From the IMG/VR virus record IMGVR_UViG_3300037067_018091, positions 1 through 64,000 of that record: a stretch of DNA of 64,000 bases. The stretch is one strand, 5' to 3'. Positions within the stretch are counted from its first letter, which is position 1. Each line of letters starts with the position of its first letter. The translations under genes were made by a program, and so were the position numbers. Positions 1 to 18,582 of the stretch are shown piece after piece. The notes under the pieces were generated by a model, which ran no database searches, had not been told where the DNA came from, and saw nothing but the letters and a program-made list of their open reading frames with translations. The DNA comes from a virus. Its lineage: Duplodnaviria; Caudoviricetes.

Positions 1-83
1 TAATAAAACGGGGTTGAAGATATTGGGGGTCTAACGTACCCAAAGCAATTTGATATTGCAATTCCTCATCACTAATGTTAAAA

Positions 84-434
84 TTAATTTCCAAAGATTT
101 TTTCTTCCAATTCAAGTATTTTATCATTCATTCTTTTGATATTTACAGGATCTATTAGATGGGAAGAGGGTCTTACCCATAAGGATTTTTGATATATCCG
201 TCCAACTAGTAAATAGTCTTTTAATTCTTGATATATTAAGGGATGATTTAAAAATGTATTAGTTATTTTATCATTGTTATTTCCATCACGATATGAATAC
301 GTTTTATGCACCCACCATTTAATTAATAATTTGAAAATTTCTAAATCTTTACAATCTTGAATAAATTGTAGTGTAAACTCTTTTTCTGGAAAAGATCCAA
401 GTGCAATTTGTATTTTTATTTCTTCGTCGGTCAT
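84..434 (-). CDS. hypothetical protein with N-terminal ExxxQxALG tag
   Basis: ORF 116 aa, begins MTDEEIKIQIALGS; overlaps 431..772 by 4 nt (coupled). Confidence 0.75.
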   Translation of the reverse strand: MTDEEIKIQIALGSFPEKEFTLQFIQDCKDLEIFKLLIKWWVHKTYSYRDGNNNDKITNTFLNHPLIYQELKDYLLVGRIYQKSLWVRPSSHLIDPVNIKRMNDKILELEEKIFGN

Positions 435-772
435 AGAATTTGATAAAGTTTTCTAATTTCATTTACTATTTTATTAATAAAAATTCGAGTAGTGTTGTTT
501 GTATTGGGATTATTTAAAAATTGTTCATGGACGAGATTGGCTTTTCTATAATATTGTATTTGTTGATCGGTATAATTTTTACGGGCGGCAGTAGTATATT
601 CATAAGCAATAGCATGTTCAATCATGTGGTATTCTAAATATCCACTATAAAAAATTTTGGCAAGATTTTCTAAAAGTTCAGGATCTTGAATTCCCCACAC
701 AAGAATGGGCTCGATGTGTTCAGGTTTTATTAAACCAAGGGCAATTTGAGCTTTTAATTCTGCATCTGTCAT
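431..772 (-). CDS. hypothetical protein with N-terminal ExxxQxALG tag
   Basis: ORF 113 aa, begins MTDAELKAQIALGL. Confidence 0.75.
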   Translation of the reverse strand: MTDAELKAQIALGLIKPEHIEPILVWGIQDPELLENLAKIFYSGYLEYHMIEHAIAYEYTTAARKNYTDQQIQYYRKANLVHEQFLNNPNTNNTTRIFINKIVNEIRKLYQIL

Positions 773-838
773 GTTGTATAATACATAAATAAAATGAAAT
801 AATTTCGTAATTTTAGTGTATAAAATAATGTAAATAAG

Positions 839-850
839 GAACTATAATAG
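839..850 (+). promoter_or_regulatory. candidate phage promoter motif GAACTATAATAG upstream of tRNA array
   Basis: Same motif recurs before several operon starts (6337, 13750, 18461, 20846). Confidence 0.5.
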
Positions 851-963
851 AATAAATCTTTTAAGCGAGTTGGAGAAATGCGACTTCAAAATCTACAAAG
901 TCAAATTTTACAAATTATCCGGCTTGCAATCTTTTCATTATCCCCAAGTTATATTAGATGGCA

Positions 964-1090
964 GCCGGCGACAGTTAATCATACCTATTCAGGAATGGTT
1001 GAACGCCGGCGAAATACGTCATCGTTGTTGGGCTAAGTTTAAACCCTACAACGCACGACGTAAGAAAGCCGGCAGGCAGTCTGTCGTGCG
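964..1090 (+). ncRNA. candidate structured RNA (three GC-rich hairpins)
   Basis: gccggcg/cgccggc (964-970/1004-1010), cgttgt-ggg/ccc-acaacg (1023-1053), cgcacgac/gtcgtgcg (1052-1090). Confidence 0.4.
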
Positions 1091-1106
1091 CTGTTGTAAA
1101 TATTTT

Positions 1107-1187
1107 AGCAGGCGAAGAGTGATGGTTAACTCACCGGTCTCATAAGCCGGTTAACAATTAGGGGTTCGATTCCCCCGCCTGCCTCCA
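1107..1187 (+). tRNA. tRNA with CAT anticodon (Met or Ile2)
   Basis: ccggt-CTCATAA-gccgg anticodon arm, TTCGATT T-loop, encoded CCA; 1:72 mismatch, 9-nt variable region. Confidence 0.8.
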
Positions 1188-1193
1188 AATTTT

Positions 1194-1264
1194 AGGTCGG
1201 TGGTGTAATGGTAACATGGTGGTCTCCAAAATCATTGATGTGCGTTCAAGTCGTACCCGACCTG
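1194..1264 (+). tRNA. tRNA-Trp(CCA)
   Basis: aggtcgg/ccgacct acceptor, loop CTCCAAA. Confidence 0.9.
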
Positions 1265-1273
1265 CTAGTTTAA

Positions 1274-1344
1274 TGGGATGTAGTTTAATGGTAGAACTCT
1301 TGACTCTGACTCAAGGAGTGGAAGTTCAAATCTTTCCGTCCCAG
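1274..1344 (+). tRNA. tRNA-Gln(CTG)
   Basis: tgggatg/cgtccca acceptor, cttga-CTCTGAC-tcaag. Confidence 0.9.
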
Positions 1345-1449
1345 TTGAATATTTAATAGATAAGGGGAAATTATGAAAAAAATAATGTGTAAAATAAAAG
1401 TGATGGCGCGCCCGACAAAACAGGGTGCGATTGTAAAAATAAAAGCTAC

Positions 1450-1534
1450 GCCGGAGTGGCGAAATTGGGAGACGCGCTAGCCCTAGAAGTTAGTGTCGAA
1501 AGGCGTGTTGGTTCAAATCCAATCTCCGGCACCA
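1450..1534 (+). tRNA. tRNA-Leu(TAG), C33 variant
   Basis: gccggag/ctccggc acceptor, ctagc-CCTAGAA-gttag, long variable arm, CCA. Confidence 0.88.
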
Positions 1535-1553
1535 AAATTTTTTTGGAGTAAAA

Positions 1554-1859
1554 ATGAAAATTAAAACTAAATACGTTTGGTATGATGGAGAAAAATGGAA
1601 GGTAGAAAAACTTTTTTCTCCTACGAAATTTGATAATTTTTTATTATTATCTATGGAAGATTCCACACATATTCATGAAGACGACAAAACAATTCCTGTT
1701 AGGATGCAGTTAATTGATGTAGAAAATGAAACTTTTTATTGGGATACTTTAGAAACTCGTAAAATTATGAAACAATTCAATAGTCTCGAAGAGGAACATA
1801 GAAAACAAATTGATAAGTTGCAGACAGCTTTAGTTGATGGTTGGGTGGATAAGGATTAA
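1554..1859 (+). CDS. hypothetical protein
   Basis: ORF 101 aa with GGAG RBS. Confidence 0.75.
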   Translation: MKIKTKYVWYDGEKWKVEKLFSPTKFDNFLLLSMEDSTHIHEDDKTIPVRMQLIDVENETFYWDTLETRKIMKQFNSLEEEHRKQIDKLQTALVDGWVDKD

Positions 1860-1876
1860 TTTGGCACCAAAAATAT

Positions 1877-2104
1877 ATGAATGATAAAGAAAAAGAAGTG
1901 CAGATTGCATTAGGTACAGTTGAGAGGTGTACTGCGTGTGGTGAATTATATAGTACGAATCAACTTGAAGTGGTGCAATCAACTATTGACGAAAAGTTTT
2001 ATTTCATATGTATTAAATGTCTTAATAATGTTTCAACAATTGTGAATGTACGGCGCTGTGATGGAAATGGTATACATGTTCGCCTCAAGAGCGAGATTTT
2101 ATAG
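1877..2104 (+). CDS. small zinc-ribbon protein with ExxxQxALG tag
   Basis: MNDKEKEVQIALGT, CxxC...CxxC; 3' end overlaps tRNA-Leu(CAA). Confidence 0.7.
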   Translation: MNDKEKEVQIALGTVERCTACGELYSTNQLEVVQSTIDEKFYFICIKCLNNVSTIVNVRRCDGNGIHVRLKSEIL

Positions 2105-2125
2105 GTTCGAATCCTATCAGCGCTA
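2052..2125 (+). tRNA. tRNA-Leu(CAA) with short variable loop
   Basis: ggcgctg/cagcgct, ttcgc-CTCAAGA-gcgag, 5-nt variable loop, atagg-TTCGAAT-cctat. Confidence 0.82.
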
Positions 2126-2134
2126 TTAAAATAT

Positions 2135-2218
2135 GGCGGAGTGGTGGAACTGGAATACACACTGGTCTTAAGAACCAGTGCCGGGTACGGCTTGAGGGTT
2201 CAAATCCCTCCTTCGCTA
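2135..2218 (+). tRNA. tRNA-Leu(TAA)
   Basis: ggcggag/cttcgct, ctggt-CTTAAGA-accag, long variable arm. Confidence 0.92.
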
Positions 2219-2230
2219 TAATAAAGTTTT

Positions 2231-2244
2231 TTGTTCTTTGAAAA
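2231..2244 (+). promoter_or_regulatory. boxA-like antitermination element
   Basis: TTGTTCTTTGAAAA matches the rrn boxA form GTTCTTTGAAAA; lies inside a stable-RNA operon. Confidence 0.5.
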
Positions 2245-2252
2245 ATTAATAA

Positions 2253-2324
2253 CTCACCAAACGTGGGGCAACTGCGGAGAACTATTCAAAGAATGTTGCC
2301 TGACTCGTGAATAGTCTTGGTGAG
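2253..2324 (+). ncRNA. candidate pseudoknotted RNA
   Basis: P1 ctcaccaa/ttggtgag, P2 gggcaac/gttgcct, P2-loop actattca pairs 8/8 with tgaatagt. Confidence 0.5.
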
Positions 2325-2337
2325 CAAAATATAAGAT

Positions 2338-2412
2338 CTCTCTGTGGTGTAAGAAAATGGAAACACGCCGGGAAGACCTGGAAACGTGGGAGTCGATGAC
2401 CTACCAGAGGGA
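2338..2412 (+). ncRNA. tRNA-like cloverleaf lacking a normal anticodon loop
   Basis: All four stems pair (ctctctg/cagaggg, gtgt/acac, ccggg/cctgg, gtggg/cctac); loops AAGA (4 nt) and AGTCGATGA (9 nt). Confidence 0.6.
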
Positions 2413-2423
2413 TTTTTAAATTT

Positions 2424-2496
2424 GCCGAGGTAGTGTTAATGGTTAGCACGTCGGGTTGTGGCCCCGGAAAAGTTGGTTCAAATCCAATCCTCGGTA
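2424..2496 (+). tRNA. tRNA-His(GTG)
   Basis: gccgagg/cctcggt, tcggg-TTGTGGC-cccgg; U at -1 and A73. Confidence 0.88.
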
Positions 2497-2504
2497 TTAA
2501 AGCA

Positions 2505-2593
2505 GGTACTATAGAGGTCCACTCTTTAATAATTTTTGTAACCCCCTGTGGTGGGCGCAGAAGCTGCAAAGTTATTAAAGACTCTATAGTACC
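2505..2593 (+). ncRNA. candidate rod-shaped RNA
   Basis: ggtactatagag/ctctatagtacc 12 bp perfect plus about 17-bp inner stem tctttaataattt/aagttattaaaga. Confidence 0.45.
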
Positions 2594-2604
2594 ATTGAAT
2601 AATT

Positions 2605-2679
2605 GCCCCTGTAGTATAATGGATAGTACGATTCGCTACGGACGAATTAATCAGGGTTCAACTCCTTGCAGGGGTACCA
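2605..2679 (+). tRNA. tRNA-Arg(ACG)
   Basis: gcccctg/caggggt, attcg-CTACGGA-cgaat, CCA. Confidence 0.93.
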
Positions 2680-2687
2680 AATTTAAC

Positions 2688-3225
2688 GCCTCTGTAGCTT
2701 AAAAGGTACTATATTAAAATAAACCTTTTAAGCTACTGGAGAAAGTTATGAAAATTTGCCAGGATTGCGGAAAAGAATTTCCATTTAGTATAGTAATTGA
2801 TGGGAAAAAACGTAATATAAGTAATCGAAAATTTTGTTTAGCGTGTTCACCATTTGGTGCGCACAATACCTCTAAACAATCTTTACGTAATAGAAAAAAG
2901 CGGAAAACGCGGGGGGAATATCACCGAAAGTATATGAGAAGAAGAGTAAAATTAATGAAAAACAAGGCAACGGATTATGCAGGTAATGCATGTTTTATTT
3001 GTGGATATTCTAAATGTAAAGATGCGTTAGAATTTCATCATAGGCGGCCAGATCAAAAAAATTTCGGCATTGGTAATAGATATGCATGTAGTTGGAAAGT
3101 TTTAAAATGTGAAATTGATAAATGTGTACTTTTATGTGCGAATTGTCATAGAGAAGTAGAAGCTGGTATAACAAAACTTATATCTGCGGTAGAGGTTGAA
3201 GGTTCAATTCCTTCCAGAGGTACCA
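2688..3225 (+). pseudogene. split tRNA (Arg-like acceptor) interrupted by HNH gene
   Basis: 5' piece gcctctg-ta-gctt-aaaagg (2688-2706); 3' piece gaagg-TTCAATT-ccttc-cagaggt-A-CCA (3198-3225); acceptor strands pair 7/7. Confidence 0.75.
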
Positions 3226-3233
3226 AAAATTAG
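2748..3233 (+). CDS. HNH homing endonuclease
   Basis: CxxC, CFICGY, LEFHH, CVLLCANCHRE motifs; C-terminus runs through tRNA 3' piece. Confidence 0.9.
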   Translation: MKICQDCGKEFPFSIVIDGKKRNISNRKFCLACSPFGAHNTSKQSLRNRKKRKTRGEYHRKYMRRRVKLMKNKATDYAGNACFICGYSKCKDALEFHHRRPDQKNFGIGNRYACSWKVLKCEIDKCVLLCANCHREVEAGITKLISAVEVEGSIPSRGTKN

Positions 3234-3238
3234 ATAAT

Positions 3239-3312
3239 GGGGGTGTCGCCAAATTGGATAAGGCCTTTCGGTTCTAACGAAAAGATTGAGGGTTCGAGTC
3301 CTTCCACCCCTA
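3239..3312 (+). tRNA. tRNA-Arg(TCT)
   Basis: gggggtg/cacccct, tttcg-GTTCTAA-cgaaa. Confidence 0.88.
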
Positions 3313-3333
3313 TAAATATTTATAGAAAAATTT

Positions 3334-3408
3334 TGGCCACTAACTCAATGGTAGAGTGCCGTCCCGTTAAGTCGGAAGTTCAGGGTTCAAATCCCTGGTG
3401 GCCAGCCA
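3334..3408 (+). tRNA. tRNA-Asn(GTT), C33 variant
   Basis: tggccac/gtggcca, ccgtc-CCGTTAA-gtcgg, G73, CCA. Confidence 0.88.
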
Positions 3409-3413
3409 AATTA

Positions 3414-3490
3414 CGGGGTGTGGCGCAGCCTGGTAGCGCACTTGTTTTGGGAACAAGTAGTCGAAGGTTCAAATCCTTTCATCCCGACCA
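3414..3490 (+). tRNA. tRNA-Pro(TGG)
   Basis: cggggtg/catcccg, cttgt-TTTGGGA-acaag, CCA. Confidence 0.93.
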
Positions 3491-3497
3491 AATTAAT

Positions 3498-3581
3498 GTG
3501 TTGGTGGCAGAGTGGTCGATTGCACCTGACTGTAGATCAGGACTTTAGGGCGCGGTGGTTCGAATCCATCCCAACACACCA
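3498..3581 (+). tRNA. tRNA-Tyr(GTA)
   Basis: gtgttgg/ccaacac, cctga-CTGTAGA-tcagg, CCA. Confidence 0.92.
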
Positions 3582-3606
3582 AATTTTTTATAAAGAGGTA
3601 TAAATA

Positions 3607-4170
3607 ATGCGTTCTTGTGATATGATGGTTGATTTAGAAACATTGGGCATGCCTCCTGATGGTATTATTGTTTCAATTGCGTGCGTTCCATTTGATCCGG
3701 AAGATGGAATTATTGATGAAGGTAAACGATGGAATATAACAATTGATTCTAATATTGCAGAAGGAAGAAAATTTACTCCTCAAACAGTTGAATGGTGGTT
3801 AAAGCAATCTAAAGAGGCACAAGAATCTCTTTTTGATATTGAACCACAACCTCTTGTAAATGTATTACAAGAATTTTGTGAATATGTACAAAAACATCTA
3901 GGAAAGAAAAGAAGTGTTTGGGTAAATGGTGCATCTTTTGATTTTATACTTTTAAAAGATGCTTTGATTAAAGCAAATATAAAAATTCCTTGGCATTTTA
4001 GACAAGAAAGTTGCATGAGGGCACTTTTACGTATTGGTAGATCTTTTGAGATAGAATACAAAAAGTATTCAGATGAAAATAAAGGAATCGCCCATAATGC
4101 ATTGGATGATTGTATAATACAGGCAAGATATATTATAGATTTTATAAAAATTATGAGGAAGGTTGACTGA
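3607..4170 (+). CDS. DEDDh 3'-5' exoribonuclease (Rv2179c/RNase AS-like)
   Basis: MVDLETLG, WW, WVNGASFD, HNALDD motifs. Confidence 0.88.
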   Translation: MRSCDMMVDLETLGMPPDGIIVSIACVPFDPEDGIIDEGKRWNITIDSNIAEGRKFTPQTVEWWLKQSKEAQESLFDIEPQPLVNVLQEFCEYVQKHLGKKRSVWVNGASFDFILLKDALIKANIKIPWHFRQESCMRALLRIGRSFEIEYKKYSDENKGIAHNALDDCIIQARYIIDFIKIMRKVD

Positions 4171-4243
4171 TCGGTAAAGTACCCGGTTGCTACCCGGAGG
4201 TCGGCCCGCAAGGGCTGAGAGGGTTCAATTCCTTCACCTTCCG
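4157..4243 (+). tRNA. tRNA-Ser(GCT)
   Basis: ggaaggt/accttcc, loop TTGCTAC, long variable arm, G73. Confidence 0.88.
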
Positions 4244-4252
4244 CTTAAAATT

Positions 4253-4426
4253 ATGACTAAAAAAGAATTTAACATTCAAAAATCTTTAGGATTAATTAAA
4301 TGTTGTATTTGTAAAACAAGTGAAATTGAATATAAGGAATTAGTAGTATTGGAAGCATTTGGTACGCCGCATACTGAGATAGTATGCGGGAAATGCCGTA
4401 ACGATATTTTATTAAAGGCAAAATAA
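4253..4426 (+). CDS. small zinc-ribbon protein with ExxxQxSLG tag
   Basis: MTKKEFNIQKSLGLIKCCICK...CGKC; ATG 4253 chosen because the longer track ORF starts inside tRNA-Ser. Confidence 0.7.
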   Translation: MTKKEFNIQKSLGLIKCCICKTSEIEYKELVVLEAFGTPHTEIVCGKCRNDILLKAK

Positions 4427-4428
4427 AC

Positions 4429-4503
4429 GGCGCTATCGTCTAATGGTTAGGACATGAGACCTTCAATCTTAAAATTCGGGTTCGATTCCCGGTAGCGCCA
4501 CCA
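4429..4503 (+). tRNA. tRNA-Glu(TTC), C33 variant
   Basis: ggcgcta/tagcgcc, tgaga-CCTTCAA-tctta, CCA. Confidence 0.88.
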
Positions 4504-4508
4504 AATAT

Positions 4509-4580
4509 GCCGCTTTAGCTTAACGGTAAAGCCACCGCCCTGTAAGCGGTAAGATCCCAGTTCAAATCTGAGAGGCGGCT
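4509..4580 (+). tRNA. tRNA-Thr(TGT), C33 variant
   Basis: gccgctt/aggcggc, accgc-CCTGTAA-gcggt. Confidence 0.86.
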
Positions 4581-4666
4581 TTAAATAAACGGGGTACAAC
4601 GGACGAGGCTTAGGCGGGTAATCAATCCTGGTGGGAAGCGTGCGGTTGACCAACCCCAAAAATTTT

Positions 4667-4741
4667 GCGGGTAAAGTGTTGATGGGTGCACATCAGCCTT
4701 CCAAGCTGAGAGAAAGGGTTCAAATCCCTTTACCCGCTCCA
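4667..4741 (+). tRNA. tRNA-Gly(TCC)
   Basis: gcgggta/tacccgc, tcagc-CTTCCAA-gctga, U73, CCA. Confidence 0.93.
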
Positions 4742-4755
4742 AAACATGGTGAACT

Positions 4756-5112
4756 ATGGAAAATGAAAAGAAGAAACAACGAGAACTTTTATTTAGTATT
4801 TCAAAAAAAGATTTTGAAATACAAACATTCCGCGCAGGTGGAAAAGGTGGGCAACATCAAAATAAAACAGAGACGGGTGTTAGAATAATTCATAAAGCTT
4901 CTGGTGCAAGAGGCGAAGCACGGGATTCTCGTAGTCAGCATATAAATCGTAAAAATGCTTTTAATCGTCTTGTTGAATCTTCTAAATTTCAAGCATGGTT
5001 TAAAATTGAAGTTGCCCGTAGATTAGGTACATTGAAACAATTAGAACAGGATGCGGAACGATGGGTTGATGCCCAAATGAAAAGTGAAAATTTAAAAATT
5101 GAAAATATTTAA
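4756..5112 (+). CDS. class I release-factor-like peptidyl-tRNA hydrolase domain protein (ArfB/PrfH-like)
   Basis: FRAGGKGGQHQNKTETGVRIIH...RSQHINRKNAFNRL, RF-1 GGQ domain only. Confidence 0.9.
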   Translation: MENEKKKQRELLFSISKKDFEIQTFRAGGKGGQHQNKTETGVRIIHKASGARGEARDSRSQHINRKNAFNRLVESSKFQAWFKIEVARRLGTLKQLEQDAERWVDAQMKSENLKIENI

Positions 5113-5115
5113 TGT

Positions 5116-5415
5116 ATGACGAATAAAGAAAGACAAGTCCAGAAAGCGTTGGGCACCCTTTCAATTAAAGGGTGGTTACAAGAAAAAGGAATTGTTTTAC
5201 GTGAAAAATGGTGGTATTTCCCTTTAAAAAAATCTACACCGGCAGACAATAAAAATGTTGTAATCATAAATAATCAAAAGTATTATAAAGTTGCAGATGA
5301 ATACATTGATCAATTTGTTTTTCCTATTTCAAGTGTAAATGAAGTAATCGCAGAACAAGTAATTGAATCTGTATATTGGAGTATAAGTATTGAAAATGGT
5401 TCAAATATTTGTTAA
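5116..5415 (+). CDS. hypothetical protein with ExxxQxALG tag
   Basis: MTNKERQVQKALGT. Confidence 0.75.
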   Translation: MTNKERQVQKALGTLSIKGWLQEKGIVLREKWWYFPLKKSTPADNKNVVIINNQKYYKVADEYIDQFVFPISSVNEVIAEQVIESVYWSISIENGSNIC

Positions 5416-5475
5416 AATTCGCGCCAAATATTTTTAAAAATTTGTATAAATAATAAAGAGCGTGTTTTAAAATGA

Positions 5476-5546
5476 TGGGGTGTGGTGAAATGGTATCACA
5501 TATGACTTTGGATCATAATTCGGAGGTTCGACTCCTCCCACCCCAG
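5476..5546 (+). tRNA. tRNA-Gln(TTG)
   Basis: tggggtg/cacccca, tatga-CTTTGGA-tcata. Confidence 0.92.
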
Positions 5547-5568
5547 CTTAATGTGGAAGGAGATTTAA

Positions 5569-5910
5569 GTGAAAACGAAGTTTAGTCATCTACGTATGAA
5601 GGGACAATTAGTTGCTACAATCGCTTTCAAAGAAGTGGGCGAGCATGCTGTGTATTATGGAATTGCAGTTGTATCAAAAAATGAATCTCAGGTTTCATAT
5701 AAAAAAGGTCGTAGGATTGCAGAGGGGCGTTGCAATAAAGCATTTGAACTTGAAGATTACCCGATTGAATGGCAAGAGTACGAAGGCGTCATCCCGGCTT
5801 CAAATGATATTATAGAAATTTTGAAAGCGCGGGGATTAGTTAAGTTTGGAGAGTGTTCTTCACAAGCTTTTAAAGACTGTATTCAAGAACTTCGAAATTT
5901 AGGGTTTTAA
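5569..5910 (+). CDS. hypothetical protein
   Basis: GTG start with AAGGAG RBS, 113 aa. Confidence 0.75.
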   Translation: MKTKFSHLRMKGQLVATIAFKEVGEHAVYYGIAVVSKNESQVSYKKGRRIAEGRCNKAFELEDYPIEWQEYEGVIPASNDIIEILKARGLVKFGECSSQAFKDCIQELRNLGF

Positions 5911-5917
5911 TTTAAAG

Positions 5918-5991
5918 GCGGGAGCAGCTTGTTTGGATCGAGCAATCGCCCTACGCGCGAAAGGTAGTAGGTTCGACTCCTACCTCCCGCA
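5918..5991 (+). tRNA. tRNA-Val(TAC), C33 variant
   Basis: gcgggag/ctcccgc, tcgc-CCTACGC-gcga, gtagg-TTCGACT-cctac. Confidence 0.86.
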
Positions 5992-5997
5992 TTTTAT

Positions 5998-6348
5998 ATG
6001 ACTGAAGAAGAAGAAAAAATACAAGCGGCATTAGGTACTGTATTTACATGCTGCTTTTGTGAAAAAATTAAACCCACTTCTGAACAGTATCAATTTGATT
6101 ACGGTGATACTGCTGTGACGTGTTGTAAAGATTGTTTTACATCTACAGCGGAGGCATTATTTCCGGATAGTCGTTCTTTTAGTTATAGTACGAAAAAACT
6201 CCAAAATAATGGGGGTGTAGTTCAGTTGATATGGGGCGCGAACAAGGGTTCAGGACATCCTTGCACGGTGACCTCGCCGGGGGCGGTACCCGGGCGCTCC
6301 ACCAATTTTAGATTATGGAGGATTTGCAATTTATTTGAACTATATTAA
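5998..6348 (+). CDS. zinc-ribbon protein with ExxxQxALG tag, reading through tRNA-Ala
   Basis: MTEEEEKIQAALGT, CCFC...CCKDC; C-terminal part is encoded by tRNA sequence. Confidence 0.65.
   Translation: MTEEEEKIQAALGTVFTCCFCEKIKPTSEQYQFDYGDTAVTCCKDCFTSTAEALFPDSRSFSYSTKKLQNNGGVVQLIWGANKGSGHPCTVTSPGAVPGRSTNFRLWRICNLFELY
6233..6304 (+). tRNA. non-canonical tRNA-Ala(TGC)
   Basis: ggggcgc/gcgctcc with G3:U70, A73, CCA; catc-CTTGCAC-ggtg anticodon arm; T-loop GGCGGTA; reduced D arm. Confidence 0.7.
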
Positions 6349-6385
6349 GTTATTGAATTTAATATAGATTTGAAAGGGATTGCAA

Positions 6386-6955
6386 ATGATTGAAGTTGTA
6401 GAAAAATATGGGCGTAAGCGAAAGTGTAAGAAATTAGTTTGTGAACAGTGTAATGAAGAATTTTGGAAACCTGTTCCGTTAATTCGGGATCAAAAACATC
6501 ATTTTTGTTCAAAACAGTGCGCAGATACATTCAAAAAAAGTTTTAGAACAATACATATATGTGCGAATTGTGGTAAAGAATTTTTACTCAATGCGCATCG
6601 AACAAATAAAAAGAATGCGACCGTGTATAGATTTTGTAGTAGGGGCTGTAAGGATAATGCGCAGCGACTTGATGGTTCTTGTCCTGAAATAAGACCATCA
6701 CATTATAAAAGTGGTGAATGTGTTTATCGAAAAAGAGCTTTTGAATATTATTTACATAAATGTGCATATTGTGGATATAATGAAATTGTAGATATATTAC
6801 AAGTTCATCATTTAGATAGAAATCGTTTAAATGGGTGTATAACAAATTTGATGATCCTTTGTCCTACATGTCATGCAATTCCTACAAAAGGTCTTGGAGA
6901 GTTTAAGTGGGAAGGTAAAAAGTGTGTTTTAGTTATGAAAGAAAAAGAAAAATGA
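6386..6955 (+). CDS. HNH homing endonuclease with zinc-binding repeats
   Basis: CEQC..FCSKQC, CANC..FCSRGC, CAYCGY, LQVHH, NLMILCPTCH; ATG 6386 after AAAGGG. Confidence 0.88.
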   Translation: MIEVVEKYGRKRKCKKLVCEQCNEEFWKPVPLIRDQKHHFCSKQCADTFKKSFRTIHICANCGKEFLLNAHRTNKKNATVYRFCSRGCKDNAQRLDGSCPEIRPSHYKSGECVYRKRAFEYYLHKCAYCGYNEIVDILQVHHLDRNRLNGCITNLMILCPTCHAIPTKGLGEFKWEGKKCVLVMKEKEK

Positions 6956-7392
6956 AAATTGCTCCATCTATATACACTGATTGGATAAATATTCATCCAA
7001 AATTAAATTTTGCATCATTCTTAATTGAATTTAGATCAACTATTAATGGAAGATATTTATATTGTCCTAATAATCATTATATTATTCAAGCTACTAACAA
7101 TATATTACCTCCTTTAGCATTACGATTTTTGGTGAAAGATTCTATATATCAATCTAGACCTACTACTGCAGAAGTAGTTTTTGTAAATAGTCTTTTTTGG
7201 TGGCGAAATGGTACTATTTATAAACAATTTCGATTTAGTGATATTATACGACAATATGATAAAATAATTATTTGGAGTTTTAATATTCCTAAAATTGATA
7301 TTAATTTTATTAAAAATAATTGTTTACAGTTATTTTCTGGTAGTATATCTAATATACGTTATAATCGGCTGCAATTAACTATTGAGGCGTAA
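6952..7392 (+). CDS. hypothetical protein
   Basis: ATG overlapping HNH stop; about 146 aa. Confidence 0.65.
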   Translation: MKIAPSIYTDWINIHPKLNFASFLIEFRSTINGRYLYCPNNHYIIQATNNILPPLALRFLVKDSIYQSRPTTAEVVFVNSLFWWRNGTIYKQFRFSDIIRQYDKIIIWSFNIPKIDINFIKNNCLQLFSGSISNIRYNRLQLTIEA

Positions 7393-7394
7393 TA

Positions 7395-7766
7395 ATGAAT
7401 ATTTGGACAATTGCCGGAATTATTGGACTTGGAATTCCTATTGTTTATGAAAAAGCACGTAGATTGTTATATTATTGTATTCCAGATTGGTGTCTTTATT
7501 CAATTCAATGTAAATGGTATGCTTTTCGAATATGGAATATAGATAAAGGGGGCGCACAAATCCCTTCTCCTGGCGGCCATCAATTTTATCAAATTATAAC
7601 TTTTCATAAGGGGAGTTATTGTGCAAATTGGTTGTGTTTAAAATTTCAAATTTTTATATTATGGACATATTCGTATAAAATTTTGCGGTGGATTCGTATT
7701 AAAGATTTATTACCGCAAGTAATATTTAAATGGAAAAAATGTCTTGAGAAAAAATGGAGAAATTAG
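7395..7766 (+). CDS. hypothetical, possibly membrane-associated protein
   Basis: hydrophobic N-terminus MNIWTIAGIIGLGIPIVY. Confidence 0.65.
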   Translation: MNIWTIAGIIGLGIPIVYEKARRLLYYCIPDWCLYSIQCKWYAFRIWNIDKGGAQIPSPGGHQFYQIITFHKGSYCANWLCLKFQIFILWTYSYKILRWIRIKDLLPQVIFKWKKCLEKKWRN

Positions 7767-7800
7767 GGTTTGAGCCCCTCCACCTCCACCAAATTTAATT

Positions 7801-7825
7801 AAAAGCCCCGTTCGCGGGGCTTTTT
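7801..7825 (+). terminator. intrinsic terminator ending tRNA array
   Basis: aaaagccccg-TTCG-cggggctttt(t). Confidence 0.9.
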
Positions 7826-18462: not shown

Positions 18463-18582
18463 ACTATATTAATTTAGATAAATAAGAATTTCTAGGTTTT
18501 TGAAAACTATGAAAACCTATATGAAGAACATCTATGTCGTTTGCTTATTTTAATTTATTGAAGTTTATCAAGGAATATTACA

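Follow-up and report, generated by a model that had tools for sequence, protein, structure and literature searches.

Homing endonuclease genes usually spare the host genome by lying between genes or within self-splicing introns and inteins. Group I introns, some of them with homing endonucleases, occupy the anticodon loops of transfer RNA (tRNA) genes, among them bacterial and plastid tRNA-Leu(UAA) and tRNA-fMet, and phage T5 has HNH nickases in its tRNA region. Here we describe an HNH homing-endonuclease gene flanked by the two pairable ends of a tRNA in a viral sequence (Duplodnaviria; Caudoviricetes), positions 1 to 64,000 of the IMG/VR virus record IMGVR_UViG_3300037067_018091; this whole stretch of 64,000 nucleotides (nt), numbered from its first letter, is called the window below.

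Several described systems share parts of this arrangement. SegB of phage T4 is a free-standing GIY-YIG homing endonuclease encoded between the tRNA genes of the T4 cluster (PMC2330249; reviewed in PMC2988022), and segB has both a hairpin that sequesters its ribosome-binding site (RBS) and a promoter of its own (PMC2988022). For I-TevI, I-TevII, I-TevIII (all three of T4) and MobE of Aeh1, a hairpin hides the Shine-Dalgarno sequence on read-through RNA, and a late or middle promoter within the structure gives rise to a translatable RNA (PMC2988022). HNH genes recur in viral tRNA clusters, in mycobacteriophages and others, and are thought to shuffle tRNA repertoires (PMC6409571). The "enigmatic" tRNA introns described for Lak megaphages (Devoto et al., 2019; PMC6784885) are short, one of them may encode a tRNA, and that paper draws no link between them and a nuclease gene. 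Endonuclease genes in phage tRNA arrays and hairpin control of homing endonucleases are already known, and full-text literature searches returned no description of an HNH gene in a tRNA gene without a ribozyme, with the tRNA ends still pairable and a remnant reused as a control hairpin.

In our view a homing-endonuclease cassette probably entered, and thereby killed, a tRNA gene akin to the neighboring tRNA-Arg(ACG). The window is the first 64 kilobases (kb) of an 87.7-kb viral contig whose estimated completeness is 30%, so the phage is probably large; according to the run records, the metagenomes that hold it are from groundwater and landfill. Eighteen tRNA genes were predicted in 1108-5991 using ARAGORN, with Rfam in agreement, and all are on the + strand. 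The features of the locus are as follows:

2605-2679, + strand: intact tRNA-Arg(ACG) (ARAGORN; Rfam 57.9 bits), the paralogue nearest to the split tRNA in acceptor and T arm.
2688-2708, + strand: 5' piece of the split tRNA, positions 1-21, with acceptor GCCTCTG, U8 and A9, D-stem 5' strand GCTT and D loop AAAAGGTA (sequence and ARAGORN intron mode).
2690-2741, + strand: predicted hairpin over the RBS, with a 5' arm (2690-2707) made of tRNA positions 3-20, a loop (2708-2722) and a 3' arm (2723-2741) that includes GGAG.
2708-2717, + strand: motif ACTATATTAA, at the left junction and in the hairpin loop, a candidate cassette promoter.
2748-3233, + strand: HNH homing-endonuclease gene, 161 amino acids, intact, phrog_2255 (E 1e-34), with stop codon TAG at 3231-3233.
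3198-3214, + strand: T arm, GAAGG-TTCAATT-CCTTC, with a 5/5 stem and a canonical T loop, kept as a hairpin in the full-length fold.
3215-3225, + strand: acceptor 3' strand CAGAGGT (3215-3221), discriminator A3222 and CCA (3223-3225); the strand pairs 7/7 with 2688-2694.
3238-3313, + strand: intact tRNA-Arg(TCT), the next gene (ARAGORN; Rfam 55.9 bits), 12 nt past the remnant CCA.

An earlier note on this DNA, made by a model from the letters and a list of open reading frames (ORFs), had described a tRNA 5' end before the HNH gene, an intact T arm, acceptor 3' strand and CCA after it, and a 7/7 acceptor across it. All of this is present: 2688-2708 corresponds to tRNA positions 1-21, 3198-3225 is perfect, and the acceptor pairing is found both in the sequence and by ARAGORN in intron mode. 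The pairing of 2688-2694 with 3215-3221 includes a G1.U72 pair, and the acceptor, discriminator and T arm are those of a canonical tRNA. Downstream of the acceptor, 2695-2708 (TA GCTT AAAAGGTA) matches tRNA positions 8-21, with U8, A9, G10, A14, G18, G19 and A21 in place, and the same 21-mer pattern begins intact tRNAs in other viral contigs. The 5' piece begins 9 nt past the CCA of tRNA-Arg(ACG), the normal spacing in the array. The 31-nt 3' piece has a single copy in the window (0 expected by chance).

From position 22 onward the sequence after the 5' piece stops fitting a tRNA. In a canonical-tRNA test a closed D stem is absent, positions 22-25 reading CTAT and not AAGC, and inspection by hand of the registers 5' of the T arm gave none with an anticodon stem and a U33/R37 loop. 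Rfam reports no tRNA at the split locus, and ARAGORN calls one at 2688-3225 only when introns are allowed, drawing a forced, AT-rich anticodon arm; its forced models disagree with one another. Neither program found anything tRNA-like in 2709-3197; there is no replacement tRNA inside the split, and the intact tRNA-Arg(ACG) lies outside it, upstream. The ARAGORN calls "tRNA-Ser(act) with a 446-nt intron" and, at a low threshold, "tRNA-Gln(ctg)" were rejected as forced. CTTATAT at 3177 was considered as the loop of an approximately 100-nt tRNA class that shares the acceptor (see below) and was rejected on a misfit in downstream spacing. The string ctgcgg at 3184, in which the earlier note saw an echo of the loop ctacgg of tRNA-Arg(ACG), shows a likeness in its letters but sits 2 nt off the register of the T arm and lacks an anticodon stem around it; as a remnant of an Arg anticodon loop it may be due to chance, and we give it no weight.

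A single base pair, altered on both strands in a compensatory way (C4-G69 to T4-A69), separates the acceptor of tRNA-Arg(ACG) from that of the split tRNA, in agreement with the likeness that the earlier note remarked on. Both tRNAs likewise have A73, a CCA that is encoded and a G1.U72 pair, which is uncommon, and tRNA-Arg(ACG) is identical to the pieces at 15/21 positions (5') and 23/28 positions (3', T arm). Because of these shared features, the compensatory pair 4:69 and the T-arm match, both pieces appear to derive from one gene, kin of the upstream neighbor. The D region of the 5' piece is nearer to that of tRNA-Thr(TGT), and it carries T20 in place of A20, an Arg identity element. Insertion into a tRNA paralogue, one half of what the earlier note proposed, is the best fit to the Arg(ACG)-like acceptor, the residence of this HNH family in tRNA arrays and the recurrence of the layout; the other half, a duplicated tRNA-Arg backed up by its intact copy, is not established because of the Thr-like D region without A20, and compensation by the intact copy can at most be supposed.

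The HNH protein has 365 homologues in a large protein collection, the closest of which are 45-53% identical and include the HNH protein of Bacillus phage Bastille; the Pfam HNH profile (PF01844) alone is sub-threshold (16.6 vs 21.4 bits). Alignment of the homologues (alignment A1) gives a layout of an N-terminal four-cysteine module with a CSPFGxHNT motif followed by a C-terminal HNH domain. Residues H97, H98, N132, H134, C82, C85, C130 and C133 are at invariant columns, and all invariant Cys, His and Asn residues, zinc-binding and catalytic alike, are kept. Homologues end 3-8 residues past the motif EAGxT, and the window ORF adds 13-16 residues that are in no homologue. This C-terminal tail is the translated T arm, acceptor strand and CCA: the conserved part of the protein ends near 3179, and the stop codon is 6 nt past the CCA. 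A 3' cassette junction at or inside the end of the ORF would cause translation to continue through the T arm, acceptor strand and CCA, and so would account for such a tail. At the DNA level, the HNH core is approximately 70% identical to HNH genes of Lak phages, which are themselves in tRNA arrays. The protein may act as a nuclease on tRNA genes.

The layout recurs elsewhere. Relatives of the window HNH were surveyed at 85 loci, in 80 of which the ORF start was callable. A same-strand tRNA lies upstream of the HNH gene at 50/80 loci, ending 45-100 nt before it at 25 of these 50, and at 31/80 the next same-strand tRNA starts no more than 30 nt from the HNH stop or else reaches back into the ORF end, with an overlap of at most 68 nt. 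To call a split tRNA, strict criteria demanded an acceptor paired 7/7 and a 5' piece showing five tRNA hallmarks; orphan T arms with such a distant partner numbered 11, vs 0.3 expected from permuted controls. Four other, unrelated phages have the split layout, with a 7/7 acceptor and a 5/5 T stem, around an HNH gene (loci L060, L086, L133 and L141). The HNH proteins of L060, L086 and L133 are relatives of the window HNH; that of L141 (ORF 2204-2740) has a different domain order, with the HNH domain first, then a zinc ribbon and a helix-turn-helix-like tail.

These four cases differ in which tRNA is split and where. In L060 the 5' piece extends to about position 26, the 3' piece resumes from about position 29, and the loop CTGTTAA (Asn) contains the stop codon of the ORF; the cassette has a perfect TTGACA-17-TATAGT promoter. 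In L141 (2093-2785) a tRNA-Met(CAT) with loop CTCATAA is broken at about 26/29, like the tRNA-Asn of L060. Because anticodon loops are retained in L060 and L141, these appear to be real tRNA genes broken near positions 26-29 and not purpose-built shells. L133 is a chimera in which a whole tRNA-Gly-like body with the wrong 3' acceptor strand stands before the HNH gene and the right strand after it. The ORF stops before the T arm in L060, L133 and L141 and continues through it in the window and L086. Given the differing tRNA identities and junction details, the cases look like repeated insertions into real tRNA genes and not like one designed shell.

The window itself has a second split tRNA:

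6211-7791, + strand: second split tRNA, Ala-type, with 5' GGGGGTG TA GTTC... at 6211 and a T arm and CACCTCC-A-CCA at 7765-7791 (sequence, ORFs).

Its acceptor pairs 7/7, including G3.U70 (by eye). It encloses a small tRNA-Ala-like RNA (6233-6304), a second HNH gene (HNH2) and two ORFs, with a weak alpha-tmRNA match at 6277-6417. HNH2 (6380-6955) has zf-FCS and HNH domains and is different from the first HNH. A terminator-like hairpin, at about 7805-7825, follows closely on the end of the second split tRNA.

In the first split tRNA, the 5' remnant is complementary to the leader of the HNH gene. The fold of 2680-2770 has a predicted energy of -24.9 kcal/mol (z -4.3), and 0/200 shuffles were as stable; the inverted repeat 2694-2736 was found by BLAST as well. 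The helix has 18 base pairs (bp): 2694-2707, tRNA positions 7-20, is perfectly complementary to 2723-2736 (14 bp), and past a bulged U, CUCU (2690-2693) pairs with GGAG (2738-2741). The Shine-Dalgarno GGAG is paired in this predicted local fold, as in the hairpins of the T4 type, and RBS-covering hairpins are predicted also 5' of homologues, for example L057 and L069. On this folding model, the hairpin would control translation of the HNH gene.

The events that we favor would be as follows. A free-standing HNH cassette consisting of leader, ribosome site and ORF would have inserted into one tRNA gene of the array, removing or overwriting approximately positions 22-43 (the D-stem 3' strand and the anticodon arm), and with the loss of these positions the split tRNA would no longer decode. 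The 5' remnant would have been newly used, building with the cassette leader the 18-bp hairpin that buries GGAG, and read-through transcripts of the tRNA operon would be left untranslated. A transcript starting within the hairpin loop, possibly at ACTATATTAA, would free GGAG, as in the scheme of T4 I-TevI, I-TevII, I-TevIII and SegB and Aeh1 MobE. The 10-mer ACTATATTAA is found also before HNH2 (6339) and at 18463, and all three copies are intergenic and on the + strand; that it is the cassette's own promoter is a guess.

Several observations weigh against this account. The loop promoter has no statistical support, in that three copies of ACTATATTAA equal the control count, and no sigma-70-type site was called at ACTATATTAA in the hairpin loop. 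Both remnants are flawless (7/7, 5/5, CCA), and the survey found no 6/7 cases beyond the 7/7 set, a pattern compatible with a recent event and equally with selection for the pairing. The match of the hairpin's 3' arm to the remnant, complementary at 18/19 positions, is not accounted for by simple insertion; it would call for an inverted duplication at repair, later selection, or a 21-nt D-loop insert in a longer 5' piece. With regard to the last of these, AAGCTAC (2730-2736) is readable as positions 22-28 (D-stem 3' strand plus 26-28), in which case the 5' piece reaches position 28. AAGCTAC is present in the cassette leaders of 3 independent loci, with 1.9 matches expected in a scan for the hexamer AGCTAC and, by our own estimate, approximately 0.5 for the 7-mer; we regard this recurrence as suggestive only.

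The insertion is, moreover, inferred and not seen, as neither an HNH-less allele nor a diverged relative was found. Comparison by blastn with phage records gave only tRNA and HNH-core matches, at 70-77% identity. The HNH protein has a single relative, 35% identical, among viral contigs, and the best matches of the neighboring exonuclease in viral and metagenome contigs are 32-45% identical, with no close phage relative. An exact 22-mer of the split-tRNA 3' piece had 0 matches in viral contigs, and the 3' piece of L060 likewise had 0 matches when searched. A landfill metagenome from a different study holds the identical split-tRNA/HNH arrangement with 0 differences. Contigs from four DNA runs include none that joins across the HNH gene, a result that is uninformative on expression or HNH-less alleles.

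A possible but rather unlikely alternative is that the ends are kept by selection, the acceptor/T-arm minihelix serving as a tRNA-like handle for processing or stability or as a switch. Cleavage by RNase P at G2688, together with 3' trimming that halts at the CCA, would release from the tRNA-operon precursor an end-protected HNH mRNA of approximately 540 nt; as a switch, of the kind that the earlier note had raised, the acceptor stem would pull CUCU (2690-2693) off GGAG and couple translation to completed transcription or processing. Consistent with this, the minimum-energy and centroid folds of 2686-3226 (541 nt) combine the 7-bp acceptor stem, the T arm and a 13-bp hairpin, with GGAG freed from CUCU. 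The remnants are undecayed, the element starts and ends at the tRNA spacing of the array, and the pairing is 7/7 in every HNH-bearing split case found. An RF-1-domain (ArfB-like) gene at 4756-5112 in the array could release peptides from stop-less mRNAs. Trimming to the CCA would delete the stop codon at 3231-3233, which speaks against this alternative. The support is thermodynamic prediction on a 541-nt RNA, and the local hairpin would form earlier during transcription. The position of the ORF relative to the 3' piece varies, as described above for the window and the four other phages, so that no uniform design emerges. In most of the HNH family a frame is missing and the gene simply has whole tRNAs at its sides, and where a frame exists both the sequences and the source tRNAs differ. 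Thermodynamically, an acceptor-stem switch appears possible, and flawless remnants would be compatible with selection. We give still less credence to a fuller version, in which the processed frame would compete with the RBS hairpin, so that the nuclease would be translated only after processing and the tRNA shape would act as a carrier for a selfish gene.

It is very improbable that the HNH segment is an intron, excised from the RNA by self-splicing or by processing enzymes and an RNA ligase, with the pieces joined into a working tRNA. Introns do occur in such settings: at L137 a bona fide group I intron (894-1092; Rfam 67.4 bits) interrupts a tRNA-Asn(GTT) (869-1149) that lies directly downstream from an HNH gene, tRNAs with a 7/7 acceptor contain inserts of 140-330 nt at several loci, and tRNA introns are reported in Lak phages (PMC6784885). 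In the window, neither a group I (RF00028) nor a group II intron was matched using Rfam, whether over 2680-3236 (E<=10) or over 1-7000 (E<=5); the same search detects the L137 intron. This agrees with the earlier note, to which no group I core was evident. Outside the conserved coding sequence, non-coding room is limited to about 39 nt on the upstream side and about 20 nt on the downstream side, and no join, by ARAGORN or by hand, yields a normal D stem and anticodon arm; the sole D-stem partner near the 3' end (AAGC at 3160) is within the conserved REVEAG codons. A search for a unique excision point using ARAGORN on all joins was rejected: 657/1333 were called as tRNAs, the score being driven mainly by the strength of the acceptor and T arm, with many anticodons and none with four canonical arms.

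That the two pieces come from unrelated tRNA genes, joined by deletion or recombination around the HNH gene and pairing 7/7 by chance, is hardly credible, for although the L133 chimera (whose HNH gene is preceded by an entire tRNA body carrying a mismatched 3' acceptor strand) shows that such joins arise and the D region is Thr-like vs an Arg-like acceptor, chance pairing would occur in about 0.1-0.5% of cases (our own estimate from (6/16)^7, allowing for the conserved G1-C72), both strands depart from tRNA-Arg(ACG) at the same, compensated pair with the rare G1.U72 common to both genes, and the control rate under the strict criteria is 0.003 per orphan.

Other features were noted in the tRNA array and in the surveyed loci. 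Inserts of 140-210 nt are present in 7/7-acceptor tRNAs at L074 160-441, L077 1006-1287, L079 1047-1327, L113/L114/L116 1176-1391, L127 1138-1426 and L175 1105-1320, and those of L074, L079, L113 and L127 have no Rfam intron match at E<=0.01. A 141-nt insert type is present in Prevotella phage Lak-B1 too, and so probably belongs to the "enigmatic" tRNA introns already published for Lak. Directly after HNH genes, and overlapping their ends, ARAGORN missed tRNA-like genes at L136 1837-1916, L140 1837-1916 and L141 1747-1826. Their acceptors pair 7/7 and their T arms are normal, with no D-arm hairpin after positions 8-9; an anticodon arm (loop CTGATAA) follows a short linker, and a D-loop-like AGTAATTGGTTA is in the position of the variable region. 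Judged by their sequences, they look like a non-cloverleaf, "rewired" class of tRNA. The tRNA-like class of approximately 100 nt mentioned above is present in L004-L007, L010, L013, L014, L017, L019, L025 and L026, with acceptor GCCTCTG/CAGAGGC-A-CCA, a CTTATAT or CTTATAC loop (anticodon UAU?) and, in the variable region, a hairpin that is very long; ARAGORN misses it or calls it inconsistently.

Within the window array, the RF-1-domain ORF at 4756-5112 is predicted to encode an ArfB-like peptidyl-tRNA hydrolase (Pfam E 2e-19; phrog_3122), and a gene for an Rv2179c-like 3'-5' exoribonuclease is located at 3607-4170 (Pfam E 2e-40). Several array ORFs, including the HNH gene of the split tRNA, terminate within or just past tRNA sequences, and the stop codon of the exoribonuclease gene falls within tRNA-Ser(GCT), which starts at 4157. 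A long hairpin at 2505-2593 (-36.3 kcal/mol, z -4.4) lies between tRNA-His and tRNA-Arg(ACG), and consists of an outer 12-bp inverted repeat, GGTACTATAGAG / CTCTATAGTACC, with an AT-rich helix inside. The 9-mer GGTACTATA has exactly three copies in the window, namely both arms of this hairpin and the left junction of the split tRNA (2705). The hairpin and GGTACTATA could represent a mobile cassette, as its remnant or its end, or else an element resembling a promoter; as a promoter, GGTACTATA was rejected because it is not enriched.

HNH genes lie directly inside tRNA genes, with no ribozyme, at the site described here, at the window's second site and in four or more further phages. Phage tRNA arrays seem to be tolerant landing pads in which nucleases break and reshuffle tRNA genes, and such breakage would help to account for the rapid turnover of tRNA sets in phages and for the numerous tRNA fragments that gene finders overlook. 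Reuse of the remnant, with tRNA positions 3-20 as an arm of a translational-control hairpin, is predicted. If instead the paired ends were functional, they would constitute a new route to express a protein gene from a tRNA precursor, and the frame would let a selfish gene live in tRNA arrays or inside tRNA genes at low cost to the phage.

Compared with group I introns in tRNA genes, the locus is alike in having an endonuclease-associated insert whose flanking acceptor ends stay complementary, as they do also in the L137 tRNA-Asn, but it has neither a ribozyme core nor an intact anticodon loop, and its exons cannot be rejoined to a normal cloverleaf. The Lak phages are likewise large phages with tRNA arrays and unexplained tRNA inserts, and the window HNH core resembles Lak HNH genes; the inserts described for them are short and were not linked to a nuclease gene in that paper (PMC6784885), whereas the split tRNA of the window holds an HNH gene. 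As in the clusters of PMC6409571, relatives of the phrog_2255 gene are recurrent in tRNA arrays; there the HNH genes are associated with clusters, and here the gene is flanked by the pairable ends of one tRNA. The I-Tev and MobE schemes differ from the window in that its loop promoter is a candidate motif and its host gene is an RNA gene without a ribozyme to restore it. SegB is similar in being a selfish endonuclease gene in a phage tRNA array with a hairpin over its RBS, and it spreads with neighboring tRNA genes. SegB, however, is a GIY-YIG enzyme encoded between tRNA genes and breaks none of them, whereas the window HNH gene is inside a tRNA whose remnant forms one arm of the predicted hairpin.

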